Below are positions 14,746-53,168 of a stretch of DNA of 64,000 bases, in pieces. The notes beneath the pieces were generated by a model. That model was not told where the DNA came from and made no database searches. It was given only the letters and a program-made list of their open reading frames with translations. Within the stretch, counting starts at the first letter, position 1, and each line of letters opens with the position of its first letter. The position numbers and the translations under genes were made by a program. The DNA is from Candidatus Calditenuis fumarioli (lineage in GTDB: Archaea > Thermoproteota > Nitrososphaeria_A > Caldarchaeales > Calditenuaceae). The stretch lies in the NCBI GenBank assembly GCA_030059665.1, contig JANVYR010000001.1:736001-800000 (forward strand), read 5' to 3'.

Positions 14746-14752
14746 CTTTACA

Positions 14753-15622
14753 TCACCTAACCAATCTCTCGTAGACCGTTTTGATGCCTCTGAGGAGGAG
14801 CACTCTCATTACGTCTCTCTTGTACCAGTCCGGGCCCCTTAAGTCGGAGACGGGATTGACCTTCATTTTGTCAAACGCATTCTTAGCCGAGGTCAGCAAG
14901 TTCTCTAAGCCCCTTTTATCGATTATCGATTCCTCTATTTCCTCCGCAGGCAGAGGTGTAGGTCCCGCGTTTGTGAAAGCCACTCCTGCACGCGTGACCC
15001 TATTATCATCATCAACGGTCAGTTGGACCGCCACCGCCGCTATCGCGTAATCGCCCGTGCGCCTCTCAAACTTCAGGTATGTCCCTCCCGAGTATCCGTC
15101 CCAATGTGGGACGTTCACCTCCACGAGCACCTCGTCTGGTCGCAATTCTGTTGTAAAGGGTCCCTTGTAGAAGTCCTTTGCCGGAATCTCCCGTGTGCCC
15201 CTCTTGCTCTTCACAACATATTTTGATTTCAGACTGATGAAAACTGCCGGTAAATCATTGCCTGGATCGCCGTGGGCTGCGTTACCTCCGACGGTGCCCA
15301 TGTTTCTCACTTGAGGGTCTGCGACCTGTCTAGAGGCCGCGCGCAGAATGTCATATTGGGATGGGAACTTAGTTCGTTCCAATTGCGCAATTCTTACCAA
15401 TGCACCGATCTTTAATGAACCGTCTTCCATGTTCATGTAATTTAGGCCTTTGACCCGATTGATGTCAACGACCAGTGCAGGCCGGGCAATCCTCAGCTTC
15501 ATTAAGGGTATCAAGCTCTGTCCCCCGGCCAGTATCTTGGCCTCTTCGCCCCTCTCATCTAGTAACTTTAGGACGTCATCTAAAGAGTTTGCAGGAATGT
15601 ATTCGAATTGTGGTGGGTACAT
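14753..15622 (-). CDS. coxM: Aerobic CO dehydrogenase medium (FAD) subunit
   Basis: [28 protein letters not shown]. Confidence 0.95.
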
Positions 15623-28105: not shown

Positions 28106-28861
28106 TCACCGCACCTCTACCGCGACGGCCGATCTCGAATGTAGAGTCTTGCCCACCGTGACTACGTCGCCTATGATCAGGAGGGACGGAGAGCTCGAGT
28201 CGAGGTGGCCAGCAGCGTCGACGAGAGACCTGACATCTGTGAAGACTAGCCTTTGCCCATAGGTCGTTGCATTGGATACGATCGCTGCAGGCTTGTCTCC
28301 TAACCCTATCCCCTCCAATTGTAACTGGAGCTCGCGGGCCTTCGTCAACCACATCATGACGATCAAAGTATCCGCTGCACTGGCCAACCTACGTATATCG
28401 GTTACCCCTCCACCCATACTACTTCCCGACGTGATGCCTATCGAGGACGAGAGGCCCCTGAGCGTCAAAGGTATCAATGCGGCAGCCGGTGCGGCCGTAA
28501 CGGAAGAGACACCGGGAACGACTTCTAGGTCAATACCGCGGGAGCTGAGGTAAAGCATCTCCTCACCGGTCCTGCCGAAAATTAGAGGGTCGCCACCCTT
28601 CAACCTGACGACCTTCTTCCCCTCGAGCGCTTTCTCAGCTATGATCCTGTTGACTTCTGCTTGCCTCCAGGACTCGCCCCTCTCCTTTCCGGCGTATATC
28701 AACTCTGCGTCTCTACAAAACCTGAGGATGTTGGGATCGACTAACCTGTCGTAAATTACTACGTCGGCCTCAGACAGCAGTCTCGAGGCCTTTAGCGTGA
28801 GCAGCTCAGGGTCACCAGGTCCAGCGCCGACGATGTAGACTTTACCTGCTCCCATCCCCAA
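28106..28861 (-). CDS. cobA: Uroporphyrinogen-III C-methyltransferase (SUMT)
   Basis: VYIVGAGPGDPELLT, RLKGGDPLIFGR, VPGVSS. Confidence 0.93.
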   Translation of the reverse strand: MGMGAGKVYIVGAGPGDPELLTLKASRLLSEADVVIYDRLVDPNILRFCRDAELIYAGKERGESWRQAEVNRIIAEKALEGKKVVRLKGGDPLIFGRTGEEMLYLSSRGIDLEVVPGVSSVTAAPAAALIPLTLRGLSSSIGITSGSSMGGGVTDIRRLASAADTLIVMMWLTKARELQLQLEGIGLGDKPAAIVSNATTYGQRLVFTDVRSLVDAAGHLDSSSPSLLIIGDVVTVGKTLHSRSAVAVEVR

Positions 28862-29495
28862 ACGCCTCGATTATCCTCATTGAGATCCTCATGGCTCCCT
28901 CCAGGTCCCGTGAGTAGAGGCGCTCAACCACGCACTGGTCGTGGATTACGGCCTCAGCGACGCTAGACCTGACCGATGGCTCCCTGAACCTAGAGAGGAG
29001 AACGGGCCTGAGCGCCCCCAACAGCTCGACCTTCAGGGCGTCGAGCTCAGAGACTTGGGCCTCCAACCTTCTCCTCAAGGACGAGGCCATATACGGACTC
29101 ATGCCCCCAGTGCTGACTCCTACTTCTATAGGCCCCTTCTTGAAGCTGGCAGGAAGATAGAAGTCGCAAAGGTCTGGCATATCGGCGAAGTTCAGAAACC
29201 TGACCTTCGGGCTCAATACGCCCTTCAACTTCACCGCTAGAGACCTCTCCTTAACTGCCACCACCCCTATGTCGGCCACCGGGACCGAGGATGGGTCGAG
29301 GGATCCCAGATCCATGGCCTTGACCGAGAGCCTGTCACCATACGTCGCGAGGAGTTCGTGAAGACCCTCCTCGGCAGAGCCAGCGATGGCGATGACGCTC
29401 GCACCTCTATCCAAGAACTTCTTCACCTTGGAGACCATCTCCTCTCCCTCTCCAACTATCAGGACGGGACGACGTAGGACGACGTCTATCAGCAA
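28842..29495 (-). CDS. sirC: Precorrin-2 dehydrogenase/sirohydrochlorin ferrochelatase (SirC/Met8/CysG-N-like)
   Basis: VLIVGEGE, NFADMPDLCDFYLP, GVSTGGMSP. Confidence 0.85.
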   Translation of the reverse strand: MLIDVVLRRPVLIVGEGEEMVSKVKKFLDRGASVIAIAGSAEEGLHELLATYGDRLSVKAMDLGSLDPSSVPVADIGVVAVKERSLAVKLKGVLSPKVRFLNFADMPDLCDFYLPASFKKGPIEVGVSTGGMSPYMASSLRRRLEAQVSELDALKVELLGALRPVLLSRFREPSVRSSVAEAVIHDQCVVERLYSRDLEGAMRISMRIIEAFGDGSR

Positions 29496-29920
29496 CCCCT
29501 CTCACCCTCAAGGATTGAAGTGACGATGACCTGTAACGATCGGGGACTCGCCAACGTCGGCCCTCCGATCTCCGCTTCTTCGACAAGTACCTCCCTCTCC
29601 AGCTTGCAGGCATAACACGCGACCCTAACGATTAGGACTCCGCCTTCAAGCCTCCTCGGTCTTCCCCTGAGAAGCCAGTGGTGTTTCCCTCCGCACTTCC
29701 AGTAACCCCACGTCTCCCTCGCTATGAACCTCAAGAGGTCTTCGGAGACGTGATCGAAAACGCGGACTTCCGCTATGCCTTTGGAGGAAAGCACCTCGCT
29801 CAACGCGTTGCGGTCACACCTCCCAAAGGCCAACCGCATCACTAGGTAGTCGAGACCGATCTCACATGCCTTAAGCAGTAACTCCCTCACCGCCTCTCTC
29901 ATTGATGACGTGCCACCCAT
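29489..29920 (-). CDS. Hypothetical protein with a possible metal-binding C/H motif
   Basis: WKCGGKHHW...ACYAC; overlaps both neighbours. Confidence 0.55.
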   Translation of the reverse strand: MGGTSSMREAVRELLLKACEIGLDYLVMRLAFGRCDRNALSEVLSSKGIAEVRVFDHVSEDLLRFIARETWGYWKCGGKHHWLLRGRPRRLEGGVLIVRVACYACKLEREVLVEEAEIGGPTLASPRSLQVIVTSILEGERGC

Positions 29921-30179
29921 CGACTTCCACCCAAGCAGCTATACCCCTCAGGACGACCGTTCTTGAGCGGATGTCAATGGAGGCGTAAGGCTGGTCCGAG
30001 ACTCGAACCCTGCCGAAGGTGTGGTGCTTCAGGTACTCATAACACGCACTTATAGCAAGGGCCTCGTCGGTGTGCTGAACTCCTGTAGATACCTCGTCTA
30101 TTCTTCGGAGCAATGAGACCAACCTCTCGAGGTTGCCCTTACCTACGAACCTCCCATTAAGTAGAACATCAATCTCCAA
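29871..30179 (-). CDS. Hypothetical protein
   Basis: 102 aa; overlaps the cysH stop. Confidence 0.55.
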   Translation of the reverse strand: MEIDVLLNGRFVGKGNLERLVSLLRRIDEVSTGVQHTDEALAISACYEYLKHHTFGRVRVSDQPYASIDIRSRTVVLRGIAAWVEVDGWHVINERGGEGVTA

Positions 30180-30993
30180 CTCGTCTCACCCCTCCCTTCA
30201 GGATAGTTGCGAGTTCCTTCTCGAAGCCGCCAGTGTATATGCTGCAGTGCATGCCGCACTCCTTAGGAGCGTCCCTCTCCCACCACCACCTGCCAGCCCT
30301 TGGATCCTCACCGGGGGAAACGGGCCTAGTGCATGGGGCGCATCCTATGCTCTTGTAACCCTTATCGTAAAGGGAAACGTAAGGAACCCTCCTCTCCCTA
30401 ACGTACTTCCACACGTCCTCGTACGTCCAATCCGCTAACGGGTTTACTTTCAAAATCCCACCGTGGTCGTGATCCACCTCCACTTTCCGGACGTTGACCC
30501 TGCTGGCCCACTGTTCCCTCCTAAGCCCTGTGATCCACGCGTCGAGGTTCGCGAGGTATCTCTGGAGTGGTCTCACCTTCCTTATATGGCAACAGAGCAA
30601 TCTAAGGTCAACGCTCTTGTAGAAGAGATTGAATCCATACCTGTAAACCATCTCAGCGACTTCCTTCTCGTCCGGGAAGATCACCTCTATTTTGATCCCA
30701 TAGTGGTCTCTAACTATGTCGACGTATTCGTAGATCTCCTGGGGCAACCTGCCCGTATCTATGATGAATGCCCTTACTTCGCTGTTGATCCTATATGCGA
30801 TATCGAGGACCACGGCGTCCTCTACCTGTCCACTGAACGCTATGGCAACTCTGGGGTGGTAGTTCTCGAGTACGAACCTGACTAGGTCCTCAGCGGGCCT
30901 CATCTCGTACTCGAGCGCTAACGCTTCGGCCTCCAGGTCATCCAAGACTGTCCTCCTCCTGGACGAAACGCCAGGTTCGGCCATCGAACTCAC
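30169..30993 (-). CDS. cysH: APS reductase (Fe-S-type CysH)
   Basis: AFSG, IDTGRL, LCCHIRKVRPL, WITGLRREQ, IGCAPC, GRW, KECGMH. Confidence 0.92.
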   Translation of the reverse strand: MSSMAEPGVSSRRRTVLDDLEAEALALEYEMRPAEDLVRFVLENYHPRVAIAFSGQVEDAVVLDIAYRINSEVRAFIIDTGRLPQEIYEYVDIVRDHYGIKIEVIFPDEKEVAEMVYRYGFNLFYKSVDLRLLCCHIRKVRPLQRYLANLDAWITGLRREQWASRVNVRKVEVDHDHGGILKVNPLADWTYEDVWKYVRERRVPYVSLYDKGYKSIGCAPCTRPVSPGEDPRAGRWWWERDAPKECGMHCSIYTGGFEKELATILKGGVRRVGD

Positions 30994-32603
30994 CTCTTAG
31001 TAGCCATGAACTGGAGGCCCTCCTCGCCGCCCATGAGCCTCACCAGCTCCTCTGGAGACTTCGAGCGAATGAAGTCCCTGAAGTTTGTGAATCCTGACGT
31101 CTTATAGGCCTTGAGGAGGTTGGCTATCCAGCCCGGTATTAGCTCCGCCGGGACTCTCCTAGCAGTCACGGACCCTATGCTCGCGTCGAGTCCGTAACCG
31201 CCGCCGAGGATCACGTCAAAGGCGTACTTGACTCCCGTCGGGGTCCTAATAGTCGTGCCCTGGAGACCTATGTCACCGAGCCAGTGTTGTCCGCACGCAT
31301 GTGGGCAACCGTCGAGGTTTATCTTCACATCCATATCCAAGAGACCCTCCAGCTCTAGCCTCTTCAATATCCTGATGAGCATGACCTTAGTCTCGCCGAC
31401 GGAATAATTGCAATATGGGTCGCCTGTGCAGGCAACACTGAGGGACTCGACCCTACGTGGTCTGAGCCCGAAGCCCAGCTTCGAAGCCCGCCTCAGGACC
31501 CTCTCCAACTCGCGCTCGGGAACGTTCACCGCTATGAGGTTCTGATGTTGGGTCACCCTGAGCTCTATGCCATCACCTAAGGCGTCGAGGAGCCTCAACA
31601 GCTGCCTTCCGGTGAGGAGTCCTGCAGTGACCGACAAGCCCACCGAGTAGAGGCCCTCTTGTTTCTGGGGGTTCACGCCCAGATGGTCGATAACCCCGCG
31701 CTTCTGGGGCAGTGGGAGGACAGGATGGTCTTCAAGCCTCCGTCCTAGCCTCTCCTCCACCAGAATCCTGAGCTTCTCAACTCCCAGGTCGTCAACTAAG
31801 AACTTCAACCTCGCCCTCACGAAGGAGGCCCTGTAGGAAGGCATGTCGTACCAGACATCGATTATAGCCCGCACCACTTCCAACTCCTCGCCGAGCTCCA
31901 CGAAGACCGGTAGGTGCCTCGATATCCTCGGAGACGAAGAGAGGCCTCCGCCGACTCTTATCGTGTATCCCTTCCTTCCGTCTTCCTTCTCCACGCCTAT
32001 CAGGGCGATGCAGTGCATCTCAGGAGCGTTGCACTGGTGCGGGCAGCTAGAGACGGTTATCTTGTGTTTTCTCGGGAGATTGCTGTATCTCCTGTTCCCG
32101 TAGAAGTATTCCGCCAGCTCGAATAGCGTGGGCCTCACGTCGAAGAGCTCCTCAGGGTTAACGCCTGATAGGGGGCAGGAAGTGATGTTCCTTACCGTAT
32201 CTCCGCAACCGGCAGCCGTGGTCAGTCCAACATCGAGCAGCCTCGAGAAGACCTCGGGTACGTCCTCTAGCCTGATCCAATGGAGCTGGACGTTCTGCCT
32301 GGTAGTCAACTCTATGTATCCCCTTCCAAACGCCTCGGCAATCTCCGCAATGGCCTTTGCCTGTTCCCAGCTCAGGATTCCTCCCGGTAACTTTATCCTG
32401 ACCATGAAGTACCCAAGCCTTGGCTTGTCGTGGTAAAGCCCCCACCACTGGAGCCTTACAACGTCCTCCTCAGGTATAGCTTCGTAGCCCTTGTCTATCA
32501 GGCTGTATATCTCGTCCAGGACGTCCAGCGGGTGCTTCTCGAGCTTCATGCGCTCCCTGGGGTTCCTTCTCAACGCCTCCTCCATGCTGACAGACCCTGA
32601 CAT
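30990..32603 (-). CDS. sir: Ferredoxin-dependent assimilatory sulfite (nitrite/sulfite) reductase, siroheme
   Basis: TTRQNVQLH, LPRKHKI, ACTGDPYC and GCPHACGQH cluster ligands. Confidence 0.9.
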   Translation of the reverse strand: MSGSVSMEEALRRNPRERMKLEKHPLDVLDEIYSLIDKGYEAIPEEDVVRLQWWGLYHDKPRLGYFMVRIKLPGGILSWEQAKAIAEIAEAFGRGYIELTTRQNVQLHWIRLEDVPEVFSRLLDVGLTTAAGCGDTVRNITSCPLSGVNPEELFDVRPTLFELAEYFYGNRRYSNLPRKHKITVSSCPHQCNAPEMHCIALIGVEKEDGRKGYTIRVGGGLSSSPRISRHLPVFVELGEELEVVRAIIDVWYDMPSYRASFVRARLKFLVDDLGVEKLRILVEERLGRRLEDHPVLPLPQKRGVIDHLGVNPQKQEGLYSVGLSVTAGLLTGRQLLRLLDALGDGIELRVTQHQNLIAVNVPERELERVLRRASKLGFGLRPRRVESLSVACTGDPYCNYSVGETKVMLIRILKRLELEGLLDMDVKINLDGCPHACGQHWLGDIGLQGTTIRTPTGVKYAFDVILGGGYGLDASIGSVTARRVPAELIPGWIANLLKAYKTSGFTNFRDFIRSKSPEELVRLMGGEEGLQFMATKR

Positions 32604-32709
32604 CCTCTCGTAACGCGAGATGGAGCTTTCTCAAAAATATTTGTCATAATATCGCAAAATTAGTCAAGCATAATATTCAAATAGAACTATATAAGCATGC
32701 ATCCACCGA

Positions 32710-33867
32710 ATGAACGCGCCTTACGGCGGAAGGCTCGTCGACCGCTTGGTCAAGGGAGGTAGGGCGGAGAAGTTGAGAGAGGAGGCACGGGAGCTGCAGC
32801 CGATTCGCTTGTCGGCGGAAGAGGAGCTGGACCTCGACAAGATCGCGATTGGAGCCTATAGCCCGCTCGAAGGGTTCATGACGAGGGAGGAGCTCGAGTC
32901 GGTCATTTCGAAGGGGGAGCTGCCGAGTGGGCTTCCGTGGACAATCCCCATTCTCCTGGATGCCAGACGGGAGGAGGTTAGGTTCTCAGAGGGCGACGAG
33001 GTCAGGCTAGAGGGGGAGACGTTTGGCGCGCTTGGTGTCATGAGGGTAGAGGAGATCTACGAGGTGGATCAGAAGGAGGTGGCCCAAAGGGTCTATGGTA
33101 CCCTCGACCCGCGTCACCCTAACGTGCGGAGGCTGCTCACCAAGGGTGAAGGTGTAGCCATAGGAGGTAGAGTGGAGCTCATCGAAAGGCCGGCATTCAA
33201 CGGTGTCGTGGGGCCGTACGAGCTCACGCCTTCAGAGGTCAGGGCCTTGATAAGCGAAAGGGGATGGAGGACCGTGGTCGGATTCCAGTGCAGGAATCCG
33301 CCCCATCTCGGACACGAATACATACAGAGGCTAGCGATGGAGCTTTACGACGGCCTGCTGATACACCCCGTCACGGGGCTCCTGAAGGAGGACGATTATC
33401 CGCCTGAAGCTATAATCGAGGCCTACGAGGCCCTAGTCGGCAATTACTACCCGAAGGGAAAGGTCCTCCTAGCATCGCTGGGAATCGAGATGAGGTACGC
33501 CGGACCGAAGGCCGCCGTTTTCCTGGCTATCATCAGGAGGAATTACGGGTGCACTCACTTCGTCGTCGGAAGGGACCTGGCTGGCGTAGGGGGTTTCTAC
33601 GACCCCTACGAGGCTCAACAGGTCCTCAGGAGCATGAGGGACGAGTTGGGAATAGAGCCGATCTGCGTCAAAGAGGTCTACTACTGCGGGAAGTGCGGTT
33701 GGGGTGTTACCGAGAACACTTGCACCCACGTCGGATGGTCTTATAACGTCACGACGATAAGCCAGACTTACATCAGGTCCGTTCTGAGACGCGGTGGCAC
33801 AGTCCCAGCAGGAGTGCTGAGGGAGGAGGTGCTCGAAGTCCTGAGGAAGTATTACCAGCGGAACTGA
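32710..33867 (+). CDS. sat: Sulfate adenylyltransferase
   Basis: GAYSPLEGFM, PWTIPI, FQCRNPPHLGHE, YAGPKAA, FVVGRDLAG. Confidence 0.94.
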   Translation: MNAPYGGRLVDRLVKGGRAEKLREEARELQPIRLSAEEELDLDKIAIGAYSPLEGFMTREELESVISKGELPSGLPWTIPILLDARREEVRFSEGDEVRLEGETFGALGVMRVEEIYEVDQKEVAQRVYGTLDPRHPNVRRLLTKGEGVAIGGRVELIERPAFNGVVGPYELTPSEVRALISERGWRTVVGFQCRNPPHLGHEYIQRLAMELYDGLLIHPVTGLLKEDDYPPEAIIEAYEALVGNYYPKGKVLLASLGIEMRYAGPKAAVFLAIIRRNYGCTHFVVGRDLAGVGGFYDPYEAQQVLRSMRDELGIEPICVKEVYYCGKCGWGVTENTCTHVGWSYNVTTISQTYIRSVLRRGGTVPAGVLREEVLEVLRKYYQRN

Positions 33868-43447: not shown

Positions 43448-44386
43448 TCACTTGCACGTCAGGCCGAGCGCTCTGCTCACCTCGGTCAACGCGGACCGCG
43501 GGTCAGGTCCTATGGGCAGCCCTATGCAGACGTGATCCACGCCAGCCTTCGAGATCTCGCGACAACCCTCCGCGAAGTCCTCCGCCGGCCCGAAGAAGGC
43601 GAAGTTGCCGATCAGGTCCTCCAGGCGTTTGTCGGGGCGATCCCAGCTCACGTACCTCAGCTCGTCAGGACCCACACCGGCGAAGGAGAGCATCGGCGAC
43701 CGCCCCACCAGCTCCCAAAGGTACTTCCGCAGCACAGGCCCGAGGAACTCCAGCGCCCTCCTCCTGTCGTCGCATATGCAACAGAAAGGCCTCGCGATGA
43801 CTTCGAACCCTTCCCTTTCCCTGCCAGCCTCCGAGAGCGACCGGCGTATAACGTCCACCAGGAAGCGAGCGTAATCCGTGTTCCAGAGGCCGTCCACGAC
43901 GACGCCCTTCACGAAGGGCAGCTTACAGACCTCGGAGATCAGCCTCGGGCCTGAGGTGCCCACCAGGATCGCGGGCGTCCTGCGAGTCCACCAGTCCAGG
44001 CACGGTCCGGTCCTGCAGCACAGCAGATCCGCAAGCGTTCTGAGGTAGCCCACGAAGTCCCTGACCTTCGGCCTGCCAGTGCCCATCGTCTCGCTGAACG
44101 CTCCCCTCGATACCCCGATCAGGGCCCTCTCGCCTGCGAACTCCGCGAGAGACTGAACGAGTCGGGCCAACGTGAAGGGATCGTAGGCGAAGGACGGTAC
44201 GGTCACCGGCCCAACGGCCACCCTCCTCGTCCTAGACGCTATCAGGAACGCCAGCGGCCACGCGGGCCTGTTGATCATGTGCTCGTATATCTGGACCGAG
44301 TGGAAGCCGCAGTTTTCCGCGCGGACCGCGAGATCGAGGAGCTCGTCGTATCTCTTGGAACATTCCAGCGCAACGCTGAACAGCAC
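43448..44386 (-). CDS. LLM-class flavin/F420-dependent oxidoreductase (Mer-like)
   Basis: AENCGFHSVQIYEH, P..LARLVQSL, GTSGPRL, C.EISKAGVDHV. Confidence 0.75.
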   Translation of the reverse strand: MLFSVALECSKRYDELLDLAVRAENCGFHSVQIYEHMINRPAWPLAFLIASRTRRVAVGPVTVPSFAYDPFTLARLVQSLAEFAGERALIGVSRGAFSETMGTGRPKVRDFVGYLRTLADLLCCRTGPCLDWWTRRTPAILVGTSGPRLISEVCKLPFVKGVVVDGLWNTDYARFLVDVIRRSLSEAGREREGFEVIARPFCCICDDRRRALEFLGPVLRKYLWELVGRSPMLSFAGVGPDELRYVSWDRPDKRLEDLIGNFAFFGPAEDFAEGCREISKAGVDHVCIGLPIGPDPRSALTEVSRALGLTCK

Positions 44387-44442: not shown

Positions 44443-44964
44443 TCAAAGGGCTCGGAGGTGGTTCTCGATGTTCTCAGCGAGCATCCTTGCGACCGACCGC
44501 GGGTCGAAGGGCCAGGCGTAGACCACCTTCTTCGGGGAGATCTTCTCCCTGTAACGCTCGATCACCGACGGTATCTCCTCCTCGGCGTGCTCGCCACCGC
44601 GTGTGGTCATCGTCGTCACAACCACTATCACGTCGACGTCGCTCCTCGAAGCCTCATCAAGCACCTCCTCCAGCGTAGGCGCGCAGAACTCGTTGAAGGC
44701 CACCCAGACCTCGTCGTATCTTCCGATCCGCTTCAGCTCCTCCGAAAGCACCCTCAGCGAGTGCGCGTACGGGTCGTTCGCATCGTTGCGGGGCCAGCTC
44801 ATGATGGTTTTCTCGAGGGACCTCAGCCTCTCTTCCTCCTCAGCTGACCTGCTGGCCTTGAACTTCAGGCTCAGGTACTCTCCCTTCATTTTGGGTGGGA
44901 GGTCCTTCGGCAGCTGACCGTGACCTACGAGGATCACGCCGACCTTGGGTCTGTTCTCCCTCAC
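44443..44964 (-). CDS. Short CbiX/SirB-type class II tetrapyrrole chelatase
   Basis: ILVGHG, VAFNEFCAPTLEE, GGEHAEEEIP. Has its own TATA (TTTATA on the minus strand near 44990). Confidence 0.8.
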   Translation of the reverse strand: MRENRPKVGVILVGHGQLPKDLPPKMKGEYLSLKFKASRSAEEEERLRSLEKTIMSWPRNDANDPYAHSLRVLSEELKRIGRYDEVWVAFNEFCAPTLEEVLDEASRSDVDVIVVVTTMTTRGGEHAEEEIPSVIERYREKISPKKVVYAWPFDPRSVARMLAENIENHLRAL

Positions 44965-45102
44965 GGCTCGAACCCGTTCACGCAGCCTATAAATCGGAAC
45001 GGACGTTCACTTCCATGAAGATCCCGCACGTCCAGGTCGCGAGGTCACTGAGCATCGAACGAAGCTCGAGGCCCAGATCAAGAGCGATCACGAGAGCGCT
45101 TC

Positions 45103-46287
45103 TCACGGTCGAACCGGTCTCTCGTCCAACGGATCGTAGACGCAGGAGGGATCGGATTCCAGAGGATCCCCTGTGAAGGAGAAGGCTCTGGCCCTAGATC
45201 CGCCGCAGACGAGCCTGTACTCGCAGAGACCGCACCTCCCCTTGAACCTCCCCTCCCTCATCGCCAGCAGGAGCGGATGCTCCCGGTAGATCCCGACGAT
45301 GGATTGCGTCTTGACGTTTCCGAGTCGGACAGGCAGGAATCCGGACGGGTAGACGTCGCCGTTGTACGCCACGAATATCACTCCGTTGCCGTCACGCGTG
45401 GGGATGAAGGCGCTATCGGCTTCTTGCACGGGAGGCCCGAGGAGCTCGTTGAGTTCCGCCTGCAGGCGATCGAGGAGGGCCTCACCCTCACCGACAGGCC
45501 TCACCCACGAGCCCAGCTTGACCCGCCTGAAGAAGGGAGCCTCCACGGTCCTGACCTGCAACCCCCTCCTCGAGACCTCGAGCAGGAACCGCATGACGAC
45601 CTCGTACTCCCATGGTCTTATGTCGAGCTCGGCCACAGCCCTCCCCGTGACCACAAGGAAGAAGACCTCCCAGACGGTGACTCCGAGCCTCCTGAGCAAG
45701 CGTGCGATCCTCGGCAGCTCCAGAACGTTCCTCCTCCAGACCACCGTGTTGACCTGGACCCGGAGCCCCTCTTCCAGCGCCTCCCTGATCGCCTTAACCG
45801 TTGACTCGAAGGACCCGTTGACCATCCTCATGTAGTCGTGGGTCTCTGGACCAGCGCCGTCGAGGCTGACGGACATCATCTTCACTCCTGACGCCTTCAG
45901 GCGTCTCATCACCTCCCGGGTGAGGTGCGGCGAGACGGCCGGCGAGACAGCTACCGGCACGGACAGTTCGTTCGCTTTCTCGATGAGGTCGAAGAGGTCC
46001 CTCCTCTGGAGCGGGTCACCGCCAGTCAGCACCAGCAGCGGCTTGGGATCTCCGAAGCTCGCGACCTCCTCGATCAGCCTGAACCCCTCTTCCGTCGTGA
46101 GCTCTCCCGGAAGGGGGTTGGGTATGGCCATGGCCCTGCAGTGCCTGCAGGCCAGAGGACAGGCCTTAGTAGTCTCCCAGAAGACCAGTAACGGTGACCT
46201 CTTGAACCTCTCCAGCCAGGCGCCGAGCTTCTCGTCGAGGTAAGGTGGTCTTCCGCTGATCCCCTCAACGGAGTAGGTGCCCACCAC
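45103..46287 (-). CDS. Radical SAM/SPASM protein, AhbD/NirJ-like
   Basis: WETTKACPLACRHCRA, TGGDPL, SPASM CGLCEYRLVCGGSRARA...DPSC; inside the hem operon. Confidence 0.8.
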   Translation of the reverse strand: MVGTYSVEGISGRPPYLDEKLGAWLERFKRSPLLVFWETTKACPLACRHCRAMAIPNPLPGELTTEEGFRLIEEVASFGDPKPLLVLTGGDPLQRRDLFDLIEKANELSVPVAVSPAVSPHLTREVMRRLKASGVKMMSVSLDGAGPETHDYMRMVNGSFESTVKAIREALEEGLRVQVNTVVWRRNVLELPRIARLLRRLGVTVWEVFFLVVTGRAVAELDIRPWEYEVVMRFLLEVSRRGLQVRTVEAPFFRRVKLGSWVRPVGEGEALLDRLQAELNELLGPPVQEADSAFIPTRDGNGVIFVAYNGDVYPSGFLPVRLGNVKTQSIVGIYREHPLLLAMREGRFKGRCGLCEYRLVCGGSRARAFSFTGDPLESDPSCVYDPLDERPVRP

Positions 46288-46293
46288 TGCGCA

Positions 46294-46776
46294 TCACCCG
46301 AACCTCAGCGCGGTTCCTAAGACCGCGAGGGCGATGGACAGGACCACGGTCGCCCACCCTACGATCACGATCCTCCTCCTGAGGGCACGAGCACCGTTTG
46401 AGTTCGCTATCCTTGCGATTGAGGCCCCCAGGGACGAATGGTACTCGACCAGGATCAGGACAGCGGTACCCAGCATCACCTTGAGCAGTACGAGGACTAC
46501 GGGCCTGTACTCGAAGGCAAACGCGAGGAGCGCTGAGAGGAACCCCCTTTGCATCGCGAGGAGAGCGCCGCTGACTATAGCAAGGTAGAGGGAGGTCCTG
46601 GTCAGAGGTCTGAGCCTTCTGCCCATCTCAGAGGATATGGCGATCGACGCAGGGCTGCCGACGAACCGTCTGACGACTCTCACGGCCAGCGAGAGCGAGA
46701 TGATCGAACCTATCCAGATGGATGCGGCGACCACGTGAACTGCCTTGATGAGCATTAGCGTGAGCAGCTCATCCAT
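46294..46776 (-). CDS. Four-TM CopD/HemJ-like membrane protein
   Basis: LIKAVHVVAASIWIGS first-helix motif; a second His in VEYHSS; lies between hemE and the radical SAM gene. Confidence 0.6.
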   Translation of the reverse strand: MDELLTLMLIKAVHVVAASIWIGSIISLSLAVRVVRRFVGSPASIAISSEMGRRLRPLTRTSLYLAIVSGALLAMQRGFLSALLAFAFEYRPVVLVLLKVMLGTAVLILVEYHSSLGASIARIANSNGARALRRRIVIVGWATVVLSIALAVLGTALRFG

Positions 46777-46779
46777 CTC

Positions 46780-47793
46780 TCACGCACCCCACTTCTTCAC
46801 GAACTCCACGAGCGCTCGGAGCGCATCGACCGGTGTGAGGGGATGAACGCCGTGCCCCAGACTGAAGACGTGCCCCCTCCTGCCCTCGGTCGAGACGAGG
46901 ATCCTCGTGGCCTCCTCCAGCACTAGGTGCTGGTCGCAGAGCAGCAGCGAGGGGTCGAGGTTTCCCTGGATGCCTACTGAACGGCCGATCTCAAGCCAGG
47001 CCTTCCTGATGTCAACCGTCCAGTCCACAGCGATGACGTCCGCACCCGTCGTCCCGAGGGACTTCAGCTGATGCGCTGGGAAGCGAACGCAGTATATCAC
47101 AGGCACGTTGAGGCTTTTCGCCCGGAGGACGAGGGACCTGCTGTACTGCAGCACGTGCTTCCGGAACTGTTCGTCGCTGAGGGTGTAAGCGAGGGTGTCG
47201 AAGAGGGCCACGGCCCTGGCACCTGCACGGACCTGCTCCTCGACGTAGATCCCCAGCAACTCCACCAGCGATTCCATGAGCCTCTCCCATTCGGGGCCCC
47301 TCCTCATGAGCGCCCTAACCCGAGCGGCGTCCCTCTCCTTCCCTCCCAACAGGTAGACAGAAGCAGTGTACGGTGCACCCGCGAAGCCTATGATGGGGAC
47401 CGAGTCGGAAAGGATCTTCCTCGAAAGCGACACGGTCTCGTAAACGTAGTGGACCGAGTTCGCCTCGAACCTCCCCAGAAGTCCCAGCAGCTCGGGCAGA
47501 TCGGGGACGTTGGCCAGAAACGGCCCGGAGCCGTCGTAAACCGCCCTCAGACCGGCTCCCTCGAAGGGCGTGAGGAGGTCCGCGAAGACTATGGCGGCGT
47601 CGACTCCCAGAACGCGGACCGGAAGGGCGGTGAGCTCAGCGGAGGACTCGACGTCCCTGAAGAGCTCGTCGAGCGGCCTACCCCGCCTTATCTGCTCGTA
47701 CTGTGGAAGGTACCTTCCGGCCTGTCTCATGAACCAGACGGGCCTCCTCTCGGTCTCCTCCAGCCTGCAGGCCCTAAGGAGCAGGTCGTTCAT
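46780..47793 (-). CDS. hemE: Uroporphyrinogen decarboxylase
   Basis: PVWFMRQAGRYLPQY, FADLL, GFAGAPYT, QGNLDP, LGHGV. Confidence 0.95.
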   Translation of the reverse strand: MNDLLLRACRLEETERRPVWFMRQAGRYLPQYEQIRRGRPLDELFRDVESSAELTALPVRVLGVDAAIVFADLLTPFEGAGLRAVYDGSGPFLANVPDLPELLGLLGRFEANSVHYVYETVSLSRKILSDSVPIIGFAGAPYTASVYLLGGKERDAARVRALMRRGPEWERLMESLVELLGIYVEEQVRAGARAVALFDTLAYTLSDEQFRKHVLQYSRSLVLRAKSLNVPVIYCVRFPAHQLKSLGTTGADVIAVDWTVDIRKAWLEIGRSVGIQGNLDPSLLLCDQHLVLEEATRILVSTEGRRGHVFSLGHGVHPLTPVDALRALVEFVKKWGA

Positions 47794-47799
47794 CGCACC

Positions 47800-49062
47800 T
47801 CAACCTCCGAGCGACCGCTCGAGCTCGGGGACGACCTCGGAGTGTGACACCGTAACGAAGGAGGCCTCGAACTGCGACGGCGGCATCAGCACACCGGACT
47901 TCAGAAGGGCATCGAAGAAGGCCCTGAACGACCCCGCGTCCGAGGACTTTGCGTCCCTGTAGTTCCTAACGCGTCTTCCGCGGGTGAAGAAGACCGTGAA
48001 CATGGAGCCGACCCTGTTCAGAACGGGGCCCTCACCGAACCCGGAGGCCAGCTTCAGCAGCGCGTCACCGACCCTCCTCCCCACGTCCTCGAGGACCTCG
48101 TACGTCCCACTGCTCAGGCTCCTGACGGTCGCAAGGCCCACGGCCATCACCAGAGGGTTGCCGGCGAAGGTGCCAGCGTGGTAGACTGGCCCCTCAGGCG
48201 CGAGGAGCCTCATCACCTCGGACCTCCCTCCCACGCATCCTATCGGCAGCCCTCCTCCCAGGACCTTCCCGAGGCACGTGAGGTCTGGCTCAACCCGGTA
48301 GAGCTCCTGGGCTCCACCCTTAGCCACCCTGAAGCCCGTAACGACCTCGTCGAAGACGAGGAGACATCCCTCTCTGTCAGCGACCTCCCTCAGCTCCTCG
48401 AGGAACCCGTCCTCGGGCGTCACGACCCCCATGTTCGCCGGTATAGGCTCGAGGAGAATGGCTGCGACCTGGCCCCTGTGACTTCTGAGCGCCCTCCTTA
48501 CGGATTCCACGTCGTTGAACGGCACCACGATTGTGTCGGCCACCACCTCGTCCGGTATCCCAGCTGAGAATGGAACACCGATCATCGATTCAGGATCGCG
48601 TGACTCCTTGACGAGGAGCGAATCGGAATGTCCGTGATAGCAGCCTTCGAAGACCAGGACCTTCTTCCTTTTGGTATAAGCCCTGGCGAGCCTGACCGCC
48701 GTCATGACGCTCTCCGTTCCGGAGTTGGTGAACCGCACGAGCTCCACAGACCTGAAGGATTTGGTGACCTCCTCCGCGAGCTCGACCTCGAGCTCACACG
48801 TCAGGCCCAGCATATGCCCCTCCCTGATCCTCTCAACCGCGGCCGCGACGACCTCATCCTGTGCGTGCCCCAAGATTATCGAGCCCCATCCGCAGATCAG
48901 ATCGATGTACCTCCTTCCGTCCTGATCGTACACGAATGGGCCCTTCGCCCTGGCGAGGACTACGGGATTGGAGCCCACCGACCGGAAGGCCCTCACAGGG
49001 CTGTTAACCCCTCCTACCAGGACCCTCTTGGCCCTCTCGAGGACGAGCGAAGAGCCCATCAC
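47800..49062 (-). CDS. hemL: Glutamate-1-semialdehyde 2,1-aminomutase
   Basis: GGVNSPVRAF, NSGTES, FDEVVTGFR, LGKVLGGGLP, PSQFEA. Confidence 0.96.
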   Translation of the reverse strand: MMGSSLVLERAKRVLVGGVNSPVRAFRSVGSNPVVLARAKGPFVYDQDGRRYIDLICGWGSIILGHAQDEVVAAAVERIREGHMLGLTCELEVELAEEVTKSFRSVELVRFTNSGTESVMTAVRLARAYTKRKKVLVFEGCYHGHSDSLLVKESRDPESMIGVPFSAGIPDEVVADTIVVPFNDVESVRRALRSHRGQVAAILLEPIPANMGVVTPEDGFLEELREVADREGCLLVFDEVVTGFRVAKGGAQELYRVEPDLTCLGKVLGGGLPIGCVGGRSEVMRLLAPEGPVYHAGTFAGNPLVMAVGLATVRSLSSGTYEVLEDVGRRVGDALLKLASGFGEGPVLNRVGSMFTVFFTRGRRVRNYRDAKSSDAGSFRAFFDALLKSGVLMPPSQFEASFVTVSHSEVVPELERSLGG

Positions 49063-50039
49063 CTACCACCCCGCAGCAGCTCCGCCACCTCCAGGGCCGA
49101 GTAGGTGATGATGACGTCAGCTCCCGCACGCCTGATCGCCATGAGCGCCTCAAGCTCCACCTGAAGGTCGTTGAGCCATCCGAGCCTGCCGGCGGCCCTG
49201 ATCATCGCGTACTCGCCGCTCACGTGGTAAGCAGCGATGGGGACGTTGAAGCGCCTCCTCACCTCAGCTATGACGTCCAGGTAGAAGAGAGCAGGCTTGA
49301 CCATGACGATGTCGGCCCCCTCAGCCACGTCCAGCTCGACCTCCCTGACGGCCTCTCTGGCGTTGGCTGGGTCCATCTGGTAAGTGGACCTGTCGCCGAA
49401 GGCTGGGGCGGATCCGGCGGCCTCCCTGAAGGGGCCGTAGAGCGAAGACGCGAACTTGGCGCTGTAGGACATGATGAGCGTGTCGGTGTAACCTTCCCTG
49501 TCGAGGGCCCTCCTGATCGCGGCCACCTGATGGTCCATCATGGCGCTGGGTGCGACGACGTCCGCTCCAGCCTCAGCGTGGCTCACCGCGGTGCGGGCCA
49601 ATAGCTCGAGCGTCTCGTCGTTCACCACCTTCCCGTTCCTCACGACTCCACAATGCCCGTGGGAGGTGTACTGGCACAGGCAGACGTCCGTCGCTATCAC
49701 GCCCCTGTACCCGCTCGCCCTGAGGGCCCTGACCGCCCTCTGGACTATCCCCTCCCTGCTGTAGGCCATCGATCCCAGCTCGTCCTTCACCGAAGGGATG
49801 CCGAAGACGAGCAGCCCGGCCACCCCCAGCTCCTCAGCCCTCGGCGCGACGTCGTTCACCAGCACGTCCACCGAGACCCTCTCCACCCCGGGAAGCGAGT
49901 TCAGGGGCTCCCTGATCCCCTCCCCCTCCCTCACGAAGACCGGGTATAGGAACCTCGAGGGCCGTAGGTCCGTCTCCCTCACCATCGACCTTATCGCCGG
50001 AGAGATCCTGAGCCTTCTGAGCCTCACCACCTCATGCAA
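49059..50039 (-). CDS. hemB: Porphobilinogen synthase (Zn-type)
   Basis: DVCLCQYTSHGHCG, APSAMMD, YGPFREA, MVKPAL, YHVSGEY. Confidence 0.96.
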   Translation of the reverse strand: MHEVVRLRRLRISPAIRSMVRETDLRPSRFLYPVFVREGEGIREPLNSLPGVERVSVDVLVNDVAPRAEELGVAGLLVFGIPSVKDELGSMAYSREGIVQRAVRALRASGYRGVIATDVCLCQYTSHGHCGVVRNGKVVNDETLELLARTAVSHAEAGADVVAPSAMMDHQVAAIRRALDREGYTDTLIMSYSAKFASSLYGPFREAAGSAPAFGDRSTYQMDPANAREAVREVELDVAEGADIVMVKPALFYLDVIAEVRRRFNVPIAAYHVSGEYAMIRAAGRLGWLNDLQVELEALMAIRRAGADVIITYSALEVAELLRGGR

Positions 50040-50760
50040 CGCGCATCACCCTCCGGAGCTCCCTGACCAGGCCGTCGAGCGAGTGCTCCTCAGCAACTGC
50101 CATCACCTCCAGTCCATGTTCCCTAGCGGCCGCCGAGGTAACCGGTCCAATGCAGATCGCCGGCCTCGGTTCGCAGCCTTGTAGCTCGCAGAGCGTCCGG
50201 TAAGCCCTGGCAGCGCTCGGAGAGCCCAGAAGGACGACCGAGTGATCCCTCGGCAGCTCCACGTCCTCTCTCACCCTGACCGAATAGGCCCTAACCTGCA
50301 CGACGCTCCTAGCGCCTCTCCTCAGCAAGGCTGAAACGAGCTCGTCGCTTGCAAGGGCGGATCTGAAGGCTATCACCGATGTGCCCTCGACGTCAGGCAG
50401 TTCCTCGGCTAGAGCGGAGACCGTGTACCTCTTCGGGACGAAAACCTCACCGTCCCAGATCGCCCTTAAGGCTTCGGCGCTCGCTGGCCCGACGGCCCCG
50501 ACGCGTCTCAGACCGTCAAGCGGTCTCCTCAGCCCCACACGATCGGCGACGAGCGAGATCGACCGCACGGCGTTTACGCTGGTGAATATCCCCCAGTCGT
50601 ATTCGCGTATCGATCTGAGTGATTCGGCAACCACATTGAAGTTCGTTTCCTCTACTAACGCGTCGAGTGCTGTAAACGGGATCCCGATTCTGTTGAGGAC
50701 CGAACCGGCTCTCCTGCAGAACCCTTCCGTTCCGACGACCAGGACGTTAATAGCCCGCAT
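50032..50760 (-). CDS. hemD: Uroporphyrinogen-III synthase
   Basis: FTSVNAV, AVGPASA, GSPSAA, CIGPVTS. Confidence 0.85.
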   Translation of the reverse strand: MRAINVLVVGTEGFCRRAGSVLNRIGIPFTALDALVEETNFNVVAESLRSIREYDWGIFTSVNAVRSISLVADRVGLRRPLDGLRRVGAVGPASAEALRAIWDGEVFVPKRYTVSALAEELPDVEGTSVIAFRSALASDELVSALLRRGARSVVQVRAYSVRVREDVELPRDHSVVLLGSPSAARAYRTLCELQGCEPRPAICIGPVTSAAAREHGLEVMAVAEEHSLDGLVRELRRVMRVA

Positions 50761-51644
50761 CAGCCCCCACCACTCATCTCCTTCACGATTCGATCGATCA
50801 GGCGGTCAACCGAGTCCAGAGGTCCCTCGACGTTCGACCTCCTGAGCCCTCTATCGCCGGTGCTCACCGCAACGATCCTGATGCGACCGTCAGCCACCAT
50901 TGCGTTGACTCCGACTGGGACCCTGCAGCCTCCGCCGAGCAGTCGGGCGACCCTCCGCTCGACCTCCACCTCGAGCCTAGCCTTTCTGTCCTCTATGGTG
51001 CCGAAGAGCTCGACCAACTCGGCGTTCTCGGCGAGGCACTCCACTGCTATCGCTCCCTGACCCGGTGCTGGAACGAGGCGATCCACATCGAAGACCTCCG
51101 ATGCCAGATGGTCGAGTCCCAGACGCTTGAGCGCAGCATACGAGATCACCGCGGCATCGCATGCGCTGTGCTCCAGAACCTTCCTGACCCTCGTGTCGAC
51201 GTTCCCCCTCAACTCGACTATCTCGACGTCTGGCCTCAGCTCCCTCAACTGCACCGCTCGCCTCTCGCTTGACGTCCCTACCTTTGCACCGCTCCTCAGC
51301 TCGTGAAGCGACCTCCTGTCCCTCGAGACTAGGGCGTCGCGCGGGTCGTCCCGCAGGGGCACCGACGCGAGGACCAGTCCATCGGGCCCCTCCAGCGGAA
51401 GGTCCTTCAGGCTGTGCACCGCGGCGTCTATCTCGCCGTCGAGGCACTTCTGCTGCAGCGTCCTGACGAAGGCCCCCTTCCCCCAGCTCCCAGGACGCGT
51501 CGGCTGGTCCTCATCCCCCTCCGCCACCACCTTCACGATCTCTACATCGACGTCGGGATGTCTGCCCTGTAGCAAACGGGCAACCGTCTCCGCCTGCATC
51601 ACGGCCAGCCTGCTCCTCCTCGTTCCCAGCCTTACGCTCCTCAC
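50760..51644 (-). CDS. hemC: Hydroxymethylbilane synthase (porphobilinogen deaminase)
   Basis: GTRRSRLA, AVHSLKD, GTSSERR, RGNVDTR, PAPGQG, GGGCRVP. Confidence 0.95.
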   Translation of the reverse strand: MRSVRLGTRRSRLAVMQAETVARLLQGRHPDVDVEIVKVVAEGDEDQPTRPGSWGKGAFVRTLQQKCLDGEIDAAVHSLKDLPLEGPDGLVLASVPLRDDPRDALVSRDRRSLHELRSGAKVGTSSERRAVQLRELRPDVEIVELRGNVDTRVRKVLEHSACDAAVISYAALKRLGLDHLASEVFDVDRLVPAPGQGAIAVECLAENAELVELFGTIEDRKARLEVEVERRVARLLGGGCRVPVGVNAMVADGRIRIVAVSTGDRGLRRSNVEGPLDSVDRLIDRIVKEMSGGG

Positions 51645-52849
51645 TGCCGGACACGCCCCGCTGCTAGGACCACCTCGAGGCCGTGGGGCGAGGCAGACGC
51701 ATCAGTCACGTCACCGTTCTCGGGAATCGCCCTGATGTTCTCGGTGAGGTCGTGCAGAAGCCTGTTGGCGAGCCGCTCCAGCGCCTTCCGGAGGACGCCT
51801 TCAGGGCCGAGCCCTCGGCCCAACATGGTCATCGCGGTTGCGAGCTCCTCCTCGATCGCGCTCGCCGCCTTGGACCTGATGAGGCGTACCGTCTCCTCGG
51901 CCGAGATCCTCTCGGAGAGCCACTCGAGCGACTCCTCCACGGCCCCCTTTATCACCGATCGGGCGACCAGCAGCTCGCGTTCCGATATCCTGAACCGCTT
52001 TTCCGCAATCTCGGCCACGTCGTCCACGTTCATGTAATTTCCGCAGGCGTCGCGTACCTGAGATGGGTCGAGGGAGCGCGGGAAGGAGAGGTCCACGACG
52101 ACTTCGGGACGCTTCCCCTCGATGACCCTCCTCAGCACGTCCCCGGCCACTGGTCCCTTAGTCGCCGAAACGACGGCATCGAAACCACCTTTCCCCAGAT
52201 CGTCCAGTCGGTCCCAATGTACGGTGAATATGTGACCTACATCCCAATCGAGCTCCCTTCTGCGGGTCAACGCGTAGAGCCTGATGTCCCTGCCGGAGGA
52301 CCGCAGTGACCTCGCGACGTCGATCGCCATGCTCCCTGAGCCCACCAACAGGACCCTTGAGCCGTCGCTCAGGAACTCCGAAACCAGCTCGCCGGTGAAC
52401 GTGCCGAGCGACCTGTAAGGGACATCCAGAACGTTCCTTATCCTTCTGCCGACGGAGGAGGCCAGCCTGAGGAGTTCCCGCAGGACCGACGAGTACTTGC
52501 CCTCCCCGTACACCTCCGCGTTCTCCACCTGGTCGGCGATCTGCGGTTCGAAGGGCACCGCTGACTCGAGCCCCGAGGCGACCGAAAGCAGATGCTCGAG
52601 CGCGGAACGGCCCAGGTGAACGTAGTGCCCCTCTGTCTCCTTGAACGGGGAGGCGCCGTATTCCCCCTCCGACGGCAGCAGCGCGACCATCTCGATCCTG
52701 TGGCAGGTCTTCACCAGTGCGATCGAACGGGCCCGTACGGTCCTGAACGCTTCCCCTCCCGCGACTGCCCTGCTCAACTCGGTGTACAACACCTCCCGGG
52801 TTTGGATGGAGGCCGTTTTGTAATTGACACCAATTATACCCAGCAGCAC
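51641..52849 (-). CDS. hemA: Glutamyl-tRNA reductase (divergent)
   Basis: GVNYKTA, KTCHRIE catalytic Cys, VASGLES, VGSGSM, VDLSFPRS; GTG start at 52849. Confidence 0.85.
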   Translation of the reverse strand: MLLGIIGVNYKTASIQTREVLYTELSRAVAGGEAFRTVRARSIALVKTCHRIEMVALLPSEGEYGASPFKETEGHYVHLGRSALEHLLSVASGLESAVPFEPQIADQVENAEVYGEGKYSSVLRELLRLASSVGRRIRNVLDVPYRSLGTFTGELVSEFLSDGSRVLLVGSGSMAIDVARSLRSSGRDIRLYALTRRRELDWDVGHIFTVHWDRLDDLGKGGFDAVVSATKGPVAGDVLRRVIEGKRPEVVVDLSFPRSLDPSQVRDACGNYMNVDDVAEIAEKRFRISERELLVARSVIKGAVEESLEWLSERISAEETVRLIRSKAASAIEEELATAMTMLGRGLGPEGVLRKALERLANRLLHDLTENIRAIPENGDVTDASASPHGLEVVLAAGRVRQ

Positions 52850-52850
52850 C

Positions 52851-52873
52851 TTGTGATTTTCCTTGTGATTTTC
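52851..52873. repeat. Direct repeat TTGTGATTTTC x2 immediately upstream of hemA
   Basis: Copies at 52851-52861 and 52863-52873. Confidence 0.6.
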
Positions 52874-53168
52874 ACCAAATGTTGCGCGCATTTTTGTCAA
52901 AAAAATGAAACTGGTCCTTTATATAAAATTTCCTCGGCAACGCCTGGACTACCGTGAGCGCAGATGGAAACCCAAAGAGGTCGCGTCCCTGCTCGGAGCC
53001 ATGCGAAGTGACTAGGCGGAGATCGCACCGCCATTCGAGTGAGGGTTCGATGCTCGCGCTCTGAACGCCTGTTGGGAACGGGCCACGTCGAGAGTCCCCG
53101 GCATCCCATCGATGGGGTGCCATCTTTACCATAGCAAACCTTTTGGTCCGTGACGACGGACTCGAAAT

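Follow-up and report, generated by a model that had tools for sequence, protein, structure and literature searches.

In the present work, we examine a cluster of nine co-directional genes on the minus strand of a 64,000-nucleotide (nt) stretch of DNA from Candidatus Calditenuis fumarioli, and discuss it as a candidate pathway to heme b. The cluster runs as hemA-C-D-B-L-E and continues with a gene for a small four-helix membrane protein (hereafter TM4), a radical S-adenosylmethionine (SAM) gene and a gene for a CbiX-like chelatase. The stretch, called the window below and used for all coordinates, is part of contig 1 (JANVYR010000001.1, positions 736,001 to 800,000) of a genome of 1.57 Mb, which is in three contigs and 91% complete. 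The nearest named relatives of the window are archaea of the Calditenuaceae and Caldarchaeales, formerly Aigarchaeota, and the stretch itself is present in hot-spring metagenomes of about a dozen studies. The genes of the cluster are the following.

51641-52900, minus strand: hemA, divergent glutamyl-tRNA reductase (PF05201 GlutR_N, PF00745 dimerisation and PF01488 NAD; TIGR01035 at 128 bits, below its cut-off)
50760-51644, minus strand: hemC, hydroxymethylbilane synthase (TIGR00212, 286 bits against a cut-off of 164)
50032-50760, minus strand: hemD, uroporphyrinogen-III synthase (PF02602, HEM4, 108 bits)
49059-50039, minus strand: hemB, porphobilinogen synthase (ALAD, 466 bits; NF006762, 471 bits against a cut-off of 297)
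47800-49062, minus strand: hemL, glutamate-1-semialdehyde aminomutase (NF000818, 531 bits against a cut-off of 398)
46780-47793, minus strand: hemE, uroporphyrinogen decarboxylase (TIGR01464, 304 bits and thus barely over the cut-off of 303; PF01208, 294 bits)
46294-46776, minus strand: TM4, 160-amino-acid (aa) four-helix membrane protein assigned to the CopD-like superfamily, candidate coproporphyrinogen III oxidase (matched by no Pfam or NCBIfam model)
45103-46287, minus strand: radical SAM gene, AhbD-type heme synthase, predicted to have a single auxiliary cluster, as in archaea other than methanogens (TIGR04053, 497 bits against a cut-off of 395)
44965-45102, minus strand: 138-nt spacer ahead of the CbiX-like gene, in which a TTTATA box is located ca 25 nt upstream of the start of that gene, as read from the sequence
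44443-44964, minus strand: CbiX-like small class II chelatase, 173 aa, candidate coproporphyrin III ferrochelatase (PF01903, 41.4 bits against a gathering score of 22)

From hemA to hemL, neighbouring genes overlap by 1 to 8 nt, and the gaps between hemE, TM4 and the radical SAM gene are 3 to 6 nt. The CbiX-like gene is probably driven by a promoter of its own in the 138-nt spacer, and the start of hemA may lie downstream of the listed one, near 52849. Since a matching gene order is found in eight other Caldarchaeales genomes, one of them decayed, the operon arrangement is not a product of chance. An original prediction, made from the window alone, had described the cluster as hemA-C-D-B-L-E followed by a four-helix His-containing protein, an AhbD/NirJ-like enzyme and a class II chelatase, all in one direction, and this description is borne out. 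It had also stated that the canonical late heme genes are absent from the cluster, and none is present there.

The first six genes encode HemA to HemE, and the radical SAM enzyme is of the AhbD type. The nearest characterised model is that of AhbD, TIGR04545 (257 bits), which comes ahead of NirJ2, NirJ and AhbC; the cut-off of this NCBIfam equivalog, 500, is not reached, and it is TIGR04053 that is passed instead. The protein has exactly seven cysteines, all of them invariant in 118 family members, and they are arranged as CX3CX2C (C43, C47 and C50, the radical SAM motif) and CX2CX5CX20C (C352, C355, C361 and C382, the AuxII motif). The latter fits the C-terminal CX2CX5CX20-38C pattern described for AhbD (PMC10452713), and the AuxI cysteines are missing, as they are in the AhbDs of non-methanogenic archaea, which have this cysteine pattern and no AuxI cluster (Fix et al. 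2023, PMC10452713). Judged by these sequence features, we have here an AhbD with a single auxiliary cluster, the type known from non-methanogenic archaea.

For the comparative analysis, a sample of 401 Thermoproteota genomes was used. TIGR04053 is matched over its cut-off in 72 of them, of which 11 belong to the Caldarchaeales and 61 do not. The two-domain AhbA/B (PF17805) is encoded in 59 of these 61, frequently adjacent to the radical SAM gene, and hemE is found in place of AhbA/B in a total of 12 genomes, namely the 11 Caldarchaeales and one of the 61, called G319 here. One radical SAM family thus closes two different upstream branches, which fits with a shared substrate, coproheme.

The same intermediate is indicated by a genome of a related genus, G034, in which the hem cluster reads hemC-D-B-A-ChdC-L-E. 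The ChdC/HemQ-like gene embedded in it (L050:8785-9471, corresponding to G034:C2:198785-199471) encodes a ChdC homolog that matches PF06778 with 191 bits and has HemQ_actino as its best NCBIfam model. Because ChdC is located inside the hem cluster, coproheme is likely an intermediate of the pathway. AhbD, TM4 and the CbiX-like gene are kept in G034 too, each at a separate locus, and this genus may therefore have both an aerobic and an anaerobic last step. Two further parts of the original prediction gain support from these comparisons. The radical SAM enzyme as the last-step heme synthase is favoured by the AhbD cysteine motif and by the pairing with AhbA/B or hemE, and the reading as a hybrid, HemE-fed coproporphyrin route by this same pairing across the 401 genomes and by the ChdC gene of G034. 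Comparative genomics supports the hybrid layout well, i.e. HemE, then oxidation, then iron insertion, then AhbD, and we consider it quite probable.

Profile searches of the source genome, in which control genomes gave matches for every late-enzyme profile, returned no ferrochelatase HemH/CpfC (PF00762), ChdC (PF06778), HemY/CgoX (TIGR00562), HemJ (PF03653), CgoN (PF07285), HemN (TIGR00538) or HemF (PF01218); HemG was not searched for. No real AhbA/B was found with PF17805, which gave one 29-bit match to an AsnC-like open reading frame (ORF) that is matched also in genus mates without hem genes, and the TIGR04053 search returned no second NirJ-like radical SAM/SPASM gene able to be AhbC. What the original prediction had noted for the cluster holds thus for the genome as searched. 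In terms of pathway sets, the source genome (G000) has HemE and AhbD of the coproporphyrin-dependent (CPD) pathway, with CgoX, CgoN, CpfC and ChdC not found, and SUMT and AhbD of the Ahb (siroheme) pathway, with AhbA/B and AhbC not found. HemH and HemY were not found in five operon-bearing relatives either, the set searched with PF00762 being G008, G015, G017, G034 and G040. The organism needs heme, since its genome encodes a heme-copper oxidase subunit I (COX1, 440 bits). Because HemE and AhbD are present, and the known enzymes for oxidation and iron insertion were not found, at least one and perhaps two undescribed heme enzymes are indicated here.

The pathway that we propose would start with HemA, HemL, HemB, HemC and HemD, which would lead to uroporphyrinogen III, and HemE would decarboxylate this to coproporphyrinogen III. 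Next, TM4 would oxidise coproporphyrinogen III to coproporphyrin III, by analogy with HemJ, and the electrons would probably go to the membrane and not directly to O2. Iron would then be inserted by the CbiX-like class II chelatase in place of CpfC/HemH, a step with less support than that of TM4, to yield coproheme. Finally, the AhbD-type enzyme would turn the two propionates of coproheme into vinyl groups without oxygen, giving heme b. We assign a probability of roughly 0.55 to the reading that the locus encodes a complete heme b pathway of this hybrid coproporphyrin type, with TM4 as the oxidase, the CbiX-like protein as the chelatase and AhbD as the last enzyme.

The strongest argument for TM4 is its distribution. 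Among the Caldarchaeales sampled, close orthologs (at least 141 bits) are confined to the 11 genomes with hemE, and all 11 have one. In nine of the 11, the gene is located between hemE and ahbD, and in G034 and G289, where the hem genes are dispersed and all kept, TM4 is retained in an unlinked position. Among the ca 60 genomes in which AhbD goes with AhbA/B, TM4 is hardly ever found, which ties TM4 to the HemE branch rather than to AhbD in general. G319 and the metagenomic contig L083 also have a TM4-like gene beside an AhbD-type gene, in both cases with no hemE nearby; in G319, a hemA-C-D-B-L-E-hemH cluster is found elsewhere in the genome.

The protein itself is modelled by AlphaFold2 (using ten orthologs) as four long helices with a short one in the second loop, at a predicted local distance difference test score (pLDDT) of 74. 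In a fold search of the ESM Atlas, a CopD/DUF4149 cluster was matched with a TM score of 0.79, and a feature search points to the CopD/DUF4149 clan as well, with HemJ far down the list, while Foldseek against the PDB gave generic four-helix bundles only, nothing at an E value of 0.001 or better. A profile search among 1.8 billion representatives yielded only about ten proteins at E 1e-10 or better. The more remote matches are genuine CopD or DUF4149 members, the CopD cut-off is passed by remote relatives found with the TM4 profile, and TM4 itself is unmatched by the CopD model PF05425. The HemJ model PF03653 (gathering score 34.2 bits) does not match TM4 even at E = 1, and is matched weakly by 5 of 17 TM4 relatives, with a best E value of 1e-5. 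Going by its fold and remote homologs, TM4 probably belongs to the CopD superfamily, and it stays below the threshold of the HemJ family. Four of the remote relatives (P0133, P0135, P0136 and P0137) are uninformative, being encoded on short contigs or among ribosomal-protein genes with no hem gene close by, and a pattern scan of one genome per species returned the HR02 genome alone. Eight residues are invariant across the wider family, H14, W21, G23, G70, K99, H113, R133 and G154. According to the positive-inside rule, the loops rich in arginine (GRRLRP and RRR) would be cytoplasmic, and an anionic tetrapyrrole would bind there.

That a CopD/HemJ-like protein is the missing oxidase had been proposed in the original prediction, and this stands in part. 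TM4 is indeed the best candidate, given its co-occurrence with hemE in 11 of 11 Caldarchaeales genomes and its position beside ahbD in two further lineages, but the HemJ model gives no match to it at E = 1, and the nearest named relatives are CopD/DUF4149 proteins. We regard it as about an even chance that TM4 is the coproporphyrinogen oxidase.

A number of observations weigh against this assignment. The two invariant histidines seem, in the model, to be near opposite faces of the membrane, neither of the Pfam models for HemJ and CopD matches the protein, and coproporphyrinogen may oxidise spontaneously in air at high temperature. Furthermore, each of 56 genomes from another family, one that lacks hemE, encodes a TM4-like protein of a related yet separate group (85-94 bits), and the fold alone does therefore not imply a role in heme synthesis. 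It should also be kept in mind that the source genome is 91% complete and that HemG was not among the enzymes searched for.

The TM4-like protein of the 56 genomes, which make up family f5 in our sample, has a length of 165-175 aa (for example G114:C3:106381-106869). These genomes are 1.1-4.3 Mb in size, most of them 1.4-2.0 Mb, and many are closed. Most also encode a protein of ca 926 aa with a related domain, and hemE is found in none. Our guess is that the family consists of ammonia oxidisers, and its TM4-like protein may handle copper.

The CbiX-like protein belongs, in an alignment of 32 sequences, to a distinct subfamily in which the histidines of GHG and GGEH..EIP are kept and an NEFC motif is invariant. 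It carries a 45-aa insert of two helices with a conserved WPR..NDPY motif. H15 is nearly invariant and H126 invariant, and the latter aligns with the His of the GxH...IP motif of CfbA. For the structure model (pLDDT 96), the best Foldseek matches are CfbA, CbiXS and SirB, and the halves of CpfC compare to it with a TMq of 0.6 in Foldseek. The score for the CfbA equivalog (NF033198, sirohydrochlorin nickel/cobalt chelatase) is 32.6 bits, below the cut-off of 120. As modelled, the fold and the two histidines fit a class II chelatase.

The gene is found in 10 of the 11 hemE-bearing Caldarchaeales genomes, and it comes directly after ahbD in G000, G040, G312, G392 and, as broken pieces, G016, i.e. 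in five genomes that represent three families. A further class II chelatase homolog was not found in the hemE-bearing Caldarchaeales genomes searched. The operon of G016 (L015, G016:C74) is in a state of decay: of hemE, only the C-terminal 136 aa are left, and the linked CbiX-like gene contains a stop and is split into three parts. Neither TM4 nor ahbD is damaged, and ALAD is absent from the genome. This decayed state is seen also on many matching metagenomic contigs (L086, L087).

Against the assignment as the ferrochelatase speaks, above all, that intact orthologs of the CbiX-like gene are present in seven hemE-less Caldarchaeales (G010, G012, G027, G038, G243, G350 and G374), the first four of which are also without ALAD; an eighth copy in this group bears a stop codon, and the genus of G374 holds ALAD and SUMT. 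We considered that the hemE-less genomes could have a separate CbiX paralog, and rejected this since the tree mixes their copies with the hemE-positive ones and contains no paralog clade. In addition, G034 and G289 have only a divergent clade of the protein according to the tree, and G319 has both HemH and the CbiX-like gene, which led us to reject a clean either/or distribution of the two. In Nitrospira, homologs with ca 40% identity (L045-L048) are located beside a DUF1722/2-thiouracil-desulfurase-like gene, and in one lineage also a DNA photolyase gene, a neighbourhood that hints at a role unrelated to heme. Nothing can be learned from the genes around the unlinked CbiX-like copies (Topo VI B, a metallophosphoesterase, a helix-turn-helix protein, MscS and DAO). 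The protein has probably a second role.

Of the claim in the original prediction that the CbiX-like enzyme inserts iron into coproporphyrin, the class II fold and the two histidines remain in its favour, but the intact orthologs in hemE-less relatives and the photolyase context in Nitrospira go against it. The protein is the best available candidate for the chelatase, and we put the odds of this being correct somewhat short of even.

It is also relevant that the window contains two genes for siroheme synthesis at 16 kb from the heme operon, which the original prediction had overlooked.

28106-28861, minus strand: SUMT (TIGR01469, 251 bits)
28842-29495, minus strand: SirC/Met8-like precorrin-2 dehydrogenase (PF00590, PF13241 and PF14824 matched across this gene and SUMT)

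These two are part of a sulfate-assimilation cluster (28106-33867) together with ATP sulfurylase (plus strand), a siroheme-type sulfite reductase and 3'-phosphoadenosine 5'-phosphosulfate (PAPS) reductase, from which it follows that the source genome makes siroheme. Also within this cluster is an ORF of 143 aa (29489-29920). A search of the other 18 genomes of this family gave no SUMT, and the cluster may be an acquired island.

The presence of these genes raises the alternative that heme is derived from siroheme, produced by SUMT, the SirC-like protein and, in the role of SirB, the CbiX-like protein, with hemE as a bystander. The two genes are indeed located beside a siroheme-dependent sulfite reductase, and CbiX homologs are named sirohydrochlorin chelatases in the sources. 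However, neither AhbA/B nor an AhbC-like second radical SAM enzyme was found in the genome, and hemE is conserved, being in the operon in ten genomes. Moreover, SUMT was not found in six other operon-bearing genomes (G008, G015, G016, G017, G034 and G040), so that heme synthesis across the group needs another explanation than the siroheme route, and in most hosts the CbiX-like protein would be without its sirohydrochlorin substrate. We therefore find this alternative highly improbable, although the CbiX-like protein could serve siroheme in the source genome, which is a further point against its assignment as the ferrochelatase. Another option is that decarboxylation precedes oxidation: the radical SAM enzyme would act on coproporphyrinogen III in the manner of HemN/CgdH, TM4 would oxidise protoporphyrinogen IX, and the CbiX-like protein would metalate protoporphyrin IX. 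HemJ acts on protoporphyrinogen, a few TM4 relatives reach PF03653 weakly, and the gene order (hemE, TM4, radical SAM gene, CbiX-like gene) is compatible with such a sequence of steps; the retention of the CbiX-like gene in heme auxotrophs would also be sensible if it metalates scavenged protoporphyrin. On the other hand, the radical SAM family accompanies AhbA/B in 59 genomes and must there act on coproheme, the enzyme carries the cysteine motif of AhbD, and a homolog of the coproheme decarboxylase ChdC is found inside the hem cluster of G034. With these data, the protoporphyrin order is improbable.

A different kind of alternative accepts the route from HemE to AhbD as real and holds that TM4, the CbiX-like protein or both are not the missing enzymes. 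TM4 could then be an electron sink for AhbD or a handler of metal or heme, and the role of the CbiX-like protein could be unrelated, while oxidation would be spontaneous, or oxidation and metalation would be performed by unrecognised proteins. In line with this, AhbD requires an external electron acceptor, the identity of which is not known (PMC10452713), TM4-like genes occur beside AhbD-type genes without a nearby hemE (G319 and contig L083), and the nearest named relatives of TM4 are of the CopD type. CbiX-like orthologs are found, as described above, in genomes that lack tetrapyrrole synthesis altogether, and beside a photolyase gene in Nitrospira. Yet the ca 60 genomes with the same AhbD family and no TM4 indicate that AhbD is generally independent of it, a chelatase is chemically required and no other of class II was found, and the operon-linked CbiX-like gene decays along with hemE in G016, where TM4 and ahbD are intact. 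We consider this alternative rather unlikely, and keep the pathway with TM4 as the oxidase and the CbiX-like protein as the chelatase as our preferred reading.

A few other observations were made on the way. In another Thermoproteota lineage, an AsnC-type regulator, two radical SAM/SPASM genes and hemE are found in a row (G309:C18, L070:6599-10411). AhbA/B is missing from this genome, the search for TM4 gave nothing at E 1e-8 or better, and the locus may represent a different hybrid. In the window, a luciferase-like oxidoreductase, probably F420-dependent, is encoded 56 nt downstream of the CbiX-like gene (43448-44386), and it was not found at the other loci compared. Farther away, there is an island of low GC content (10914-15622; GC 0.47-0.53, compared to 0.62-0.64 across most of the remaining window), which carries a Mo-hydroxylase/CO-dehydrogenase-type set consisting of a flavoprotein, a 2Fe-2S subunit, a large Mo subunit and an XdhC/CoxI-like protein, the last of these bearing a YHS/TRASH metal domain.

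Heme auxotrophy has been reported for most Aigarchaeota (Beam 2015, PMC4681859). The patchy presence of the operon makes most Aigarchaeota look heme-auxotrophic, and offers a prediction of the uncultured lineages that would have to be grown with added heme. According to a 2026 review, the heme pathways are complete, with every known heme-synthesising organism accounted for (PMC13564367). We came across no description of this operon in the literature searched (on TIGR04053, on hemE in Aigarchaeota and on an AhbD-containing CPD route in archaea). In its most general form, the proposal is that the Caldarchaeales, and probably other hemE-bearing archaea, oxidise coproporphyrinogen III with a CopD-superfamily protein, which would add a third enzyme, unrelated by homology, to CgoX and CgoN, and that their coproporphyrin ferrochelatase is a homodimer-type CbiX protein with a lid-like insert. 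We put this forward as a tentative possibility, on balance doubtful. If TM4 is the oxidase, this would also account for the step that has lacked an enzyme in the Thermoplasmatales ever since their first genomes (PMC3004389). If the general proposal is true, it amounts to a distinct, fourth layout of heme synthesis, and fills an oxidation step missing in archaeal hemE genomes since 2002-2010.

It is instructive to compare the two candidate enzymes and the pathway with the known systems. CbiXS and CfbA are the sirohydrochlorin cobalt and nickel chelatases. The CbiX-like protein shares with these and with SirB the PF01903 match, the GHG and GxH...IP histidines and the closest fold by Foldseek; it differs by the 45-aa insert, the invariant NEFC and the score below the CfbA cut-off, and most of its hosts cannot make sirohydrochlorin.

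HemJ is the membrane-bound protoporphyrinogen IX oxidase of cyanobacteria and proteobacteria, and to our knowledge the only characterised tetrapyrrole enzyme in the CopD-like superfamily. Like HemJ, TM4 is a small four-helix membrane protein with an invariant histidine in helix 1 (H14), which may be the counterpart of the HemJ heme ligand, and its gene occupies the place in a heme operon where a porphyrinogen oxidase is missing. The two are apparently of the same superfamily, as seen from the weak matches of TM4 relatives. In contrast to HemJ, TM4 is unmatched by PF03653, has its nearest relatives among CopD/DUF4149 proteins, and would act on coproporphyrinogen III. HemJ is listed for no archaeon in the table of Kobayashi 2014 (PMC4231631).

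Among archaea, Storbeck 2010 found hemE only in the Thermoplasmatales, together with hemH and with no coproporphyrinogen or protoporphyrinogen oxidase known (PMC3004389). The likeness to the present case is an archaeal hemE with an unexplained oxidation step, and G319 even combines hemA-C-D-B-L-E-hemH with AhbD-type and TM4-like genes. The difference is the canonical HemH of the Thermoplasmatales, which was not found here, where a CbiX-like gene is located at the end of the operon.

The Ahb siroheme pathway of archaea and sulfate reducers proceeds through SUMT, SirC, a chelatase, AhbA/B, AhbC and AhbD. Its last enzyme is of the same family, TIGR04053, with the cysteine motif of non-methanogen AhbDs. 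The present case differs in that there is a hemE, that neither AhbA/B nor AhbC was found, and that SUMT is lacking from most operon-bearing genomes.

Also close is the CPD pathway of Firmicutes and Actinobacteria in its AhbD variant, which consists of HemE, CgoX or CgoN, CpfC, and AhbD in place of ChdC. AhbD is found in CPD organisms without the other Ahb enzymes (review PMC13564367). CgoX (TIGR00562), CgoN (PF07285) and CpfC (PF00762), on the other hand, were not found here or in the relatives searched, and in their operon places there are a CopD-superfamily membrane protein and a 173-aa CbiX-type protein, in an archaeal host. In both cases, HemE feeds the route, coproheme is likely the last intermediate, and AhbD finishes the synthesis without oxygen.

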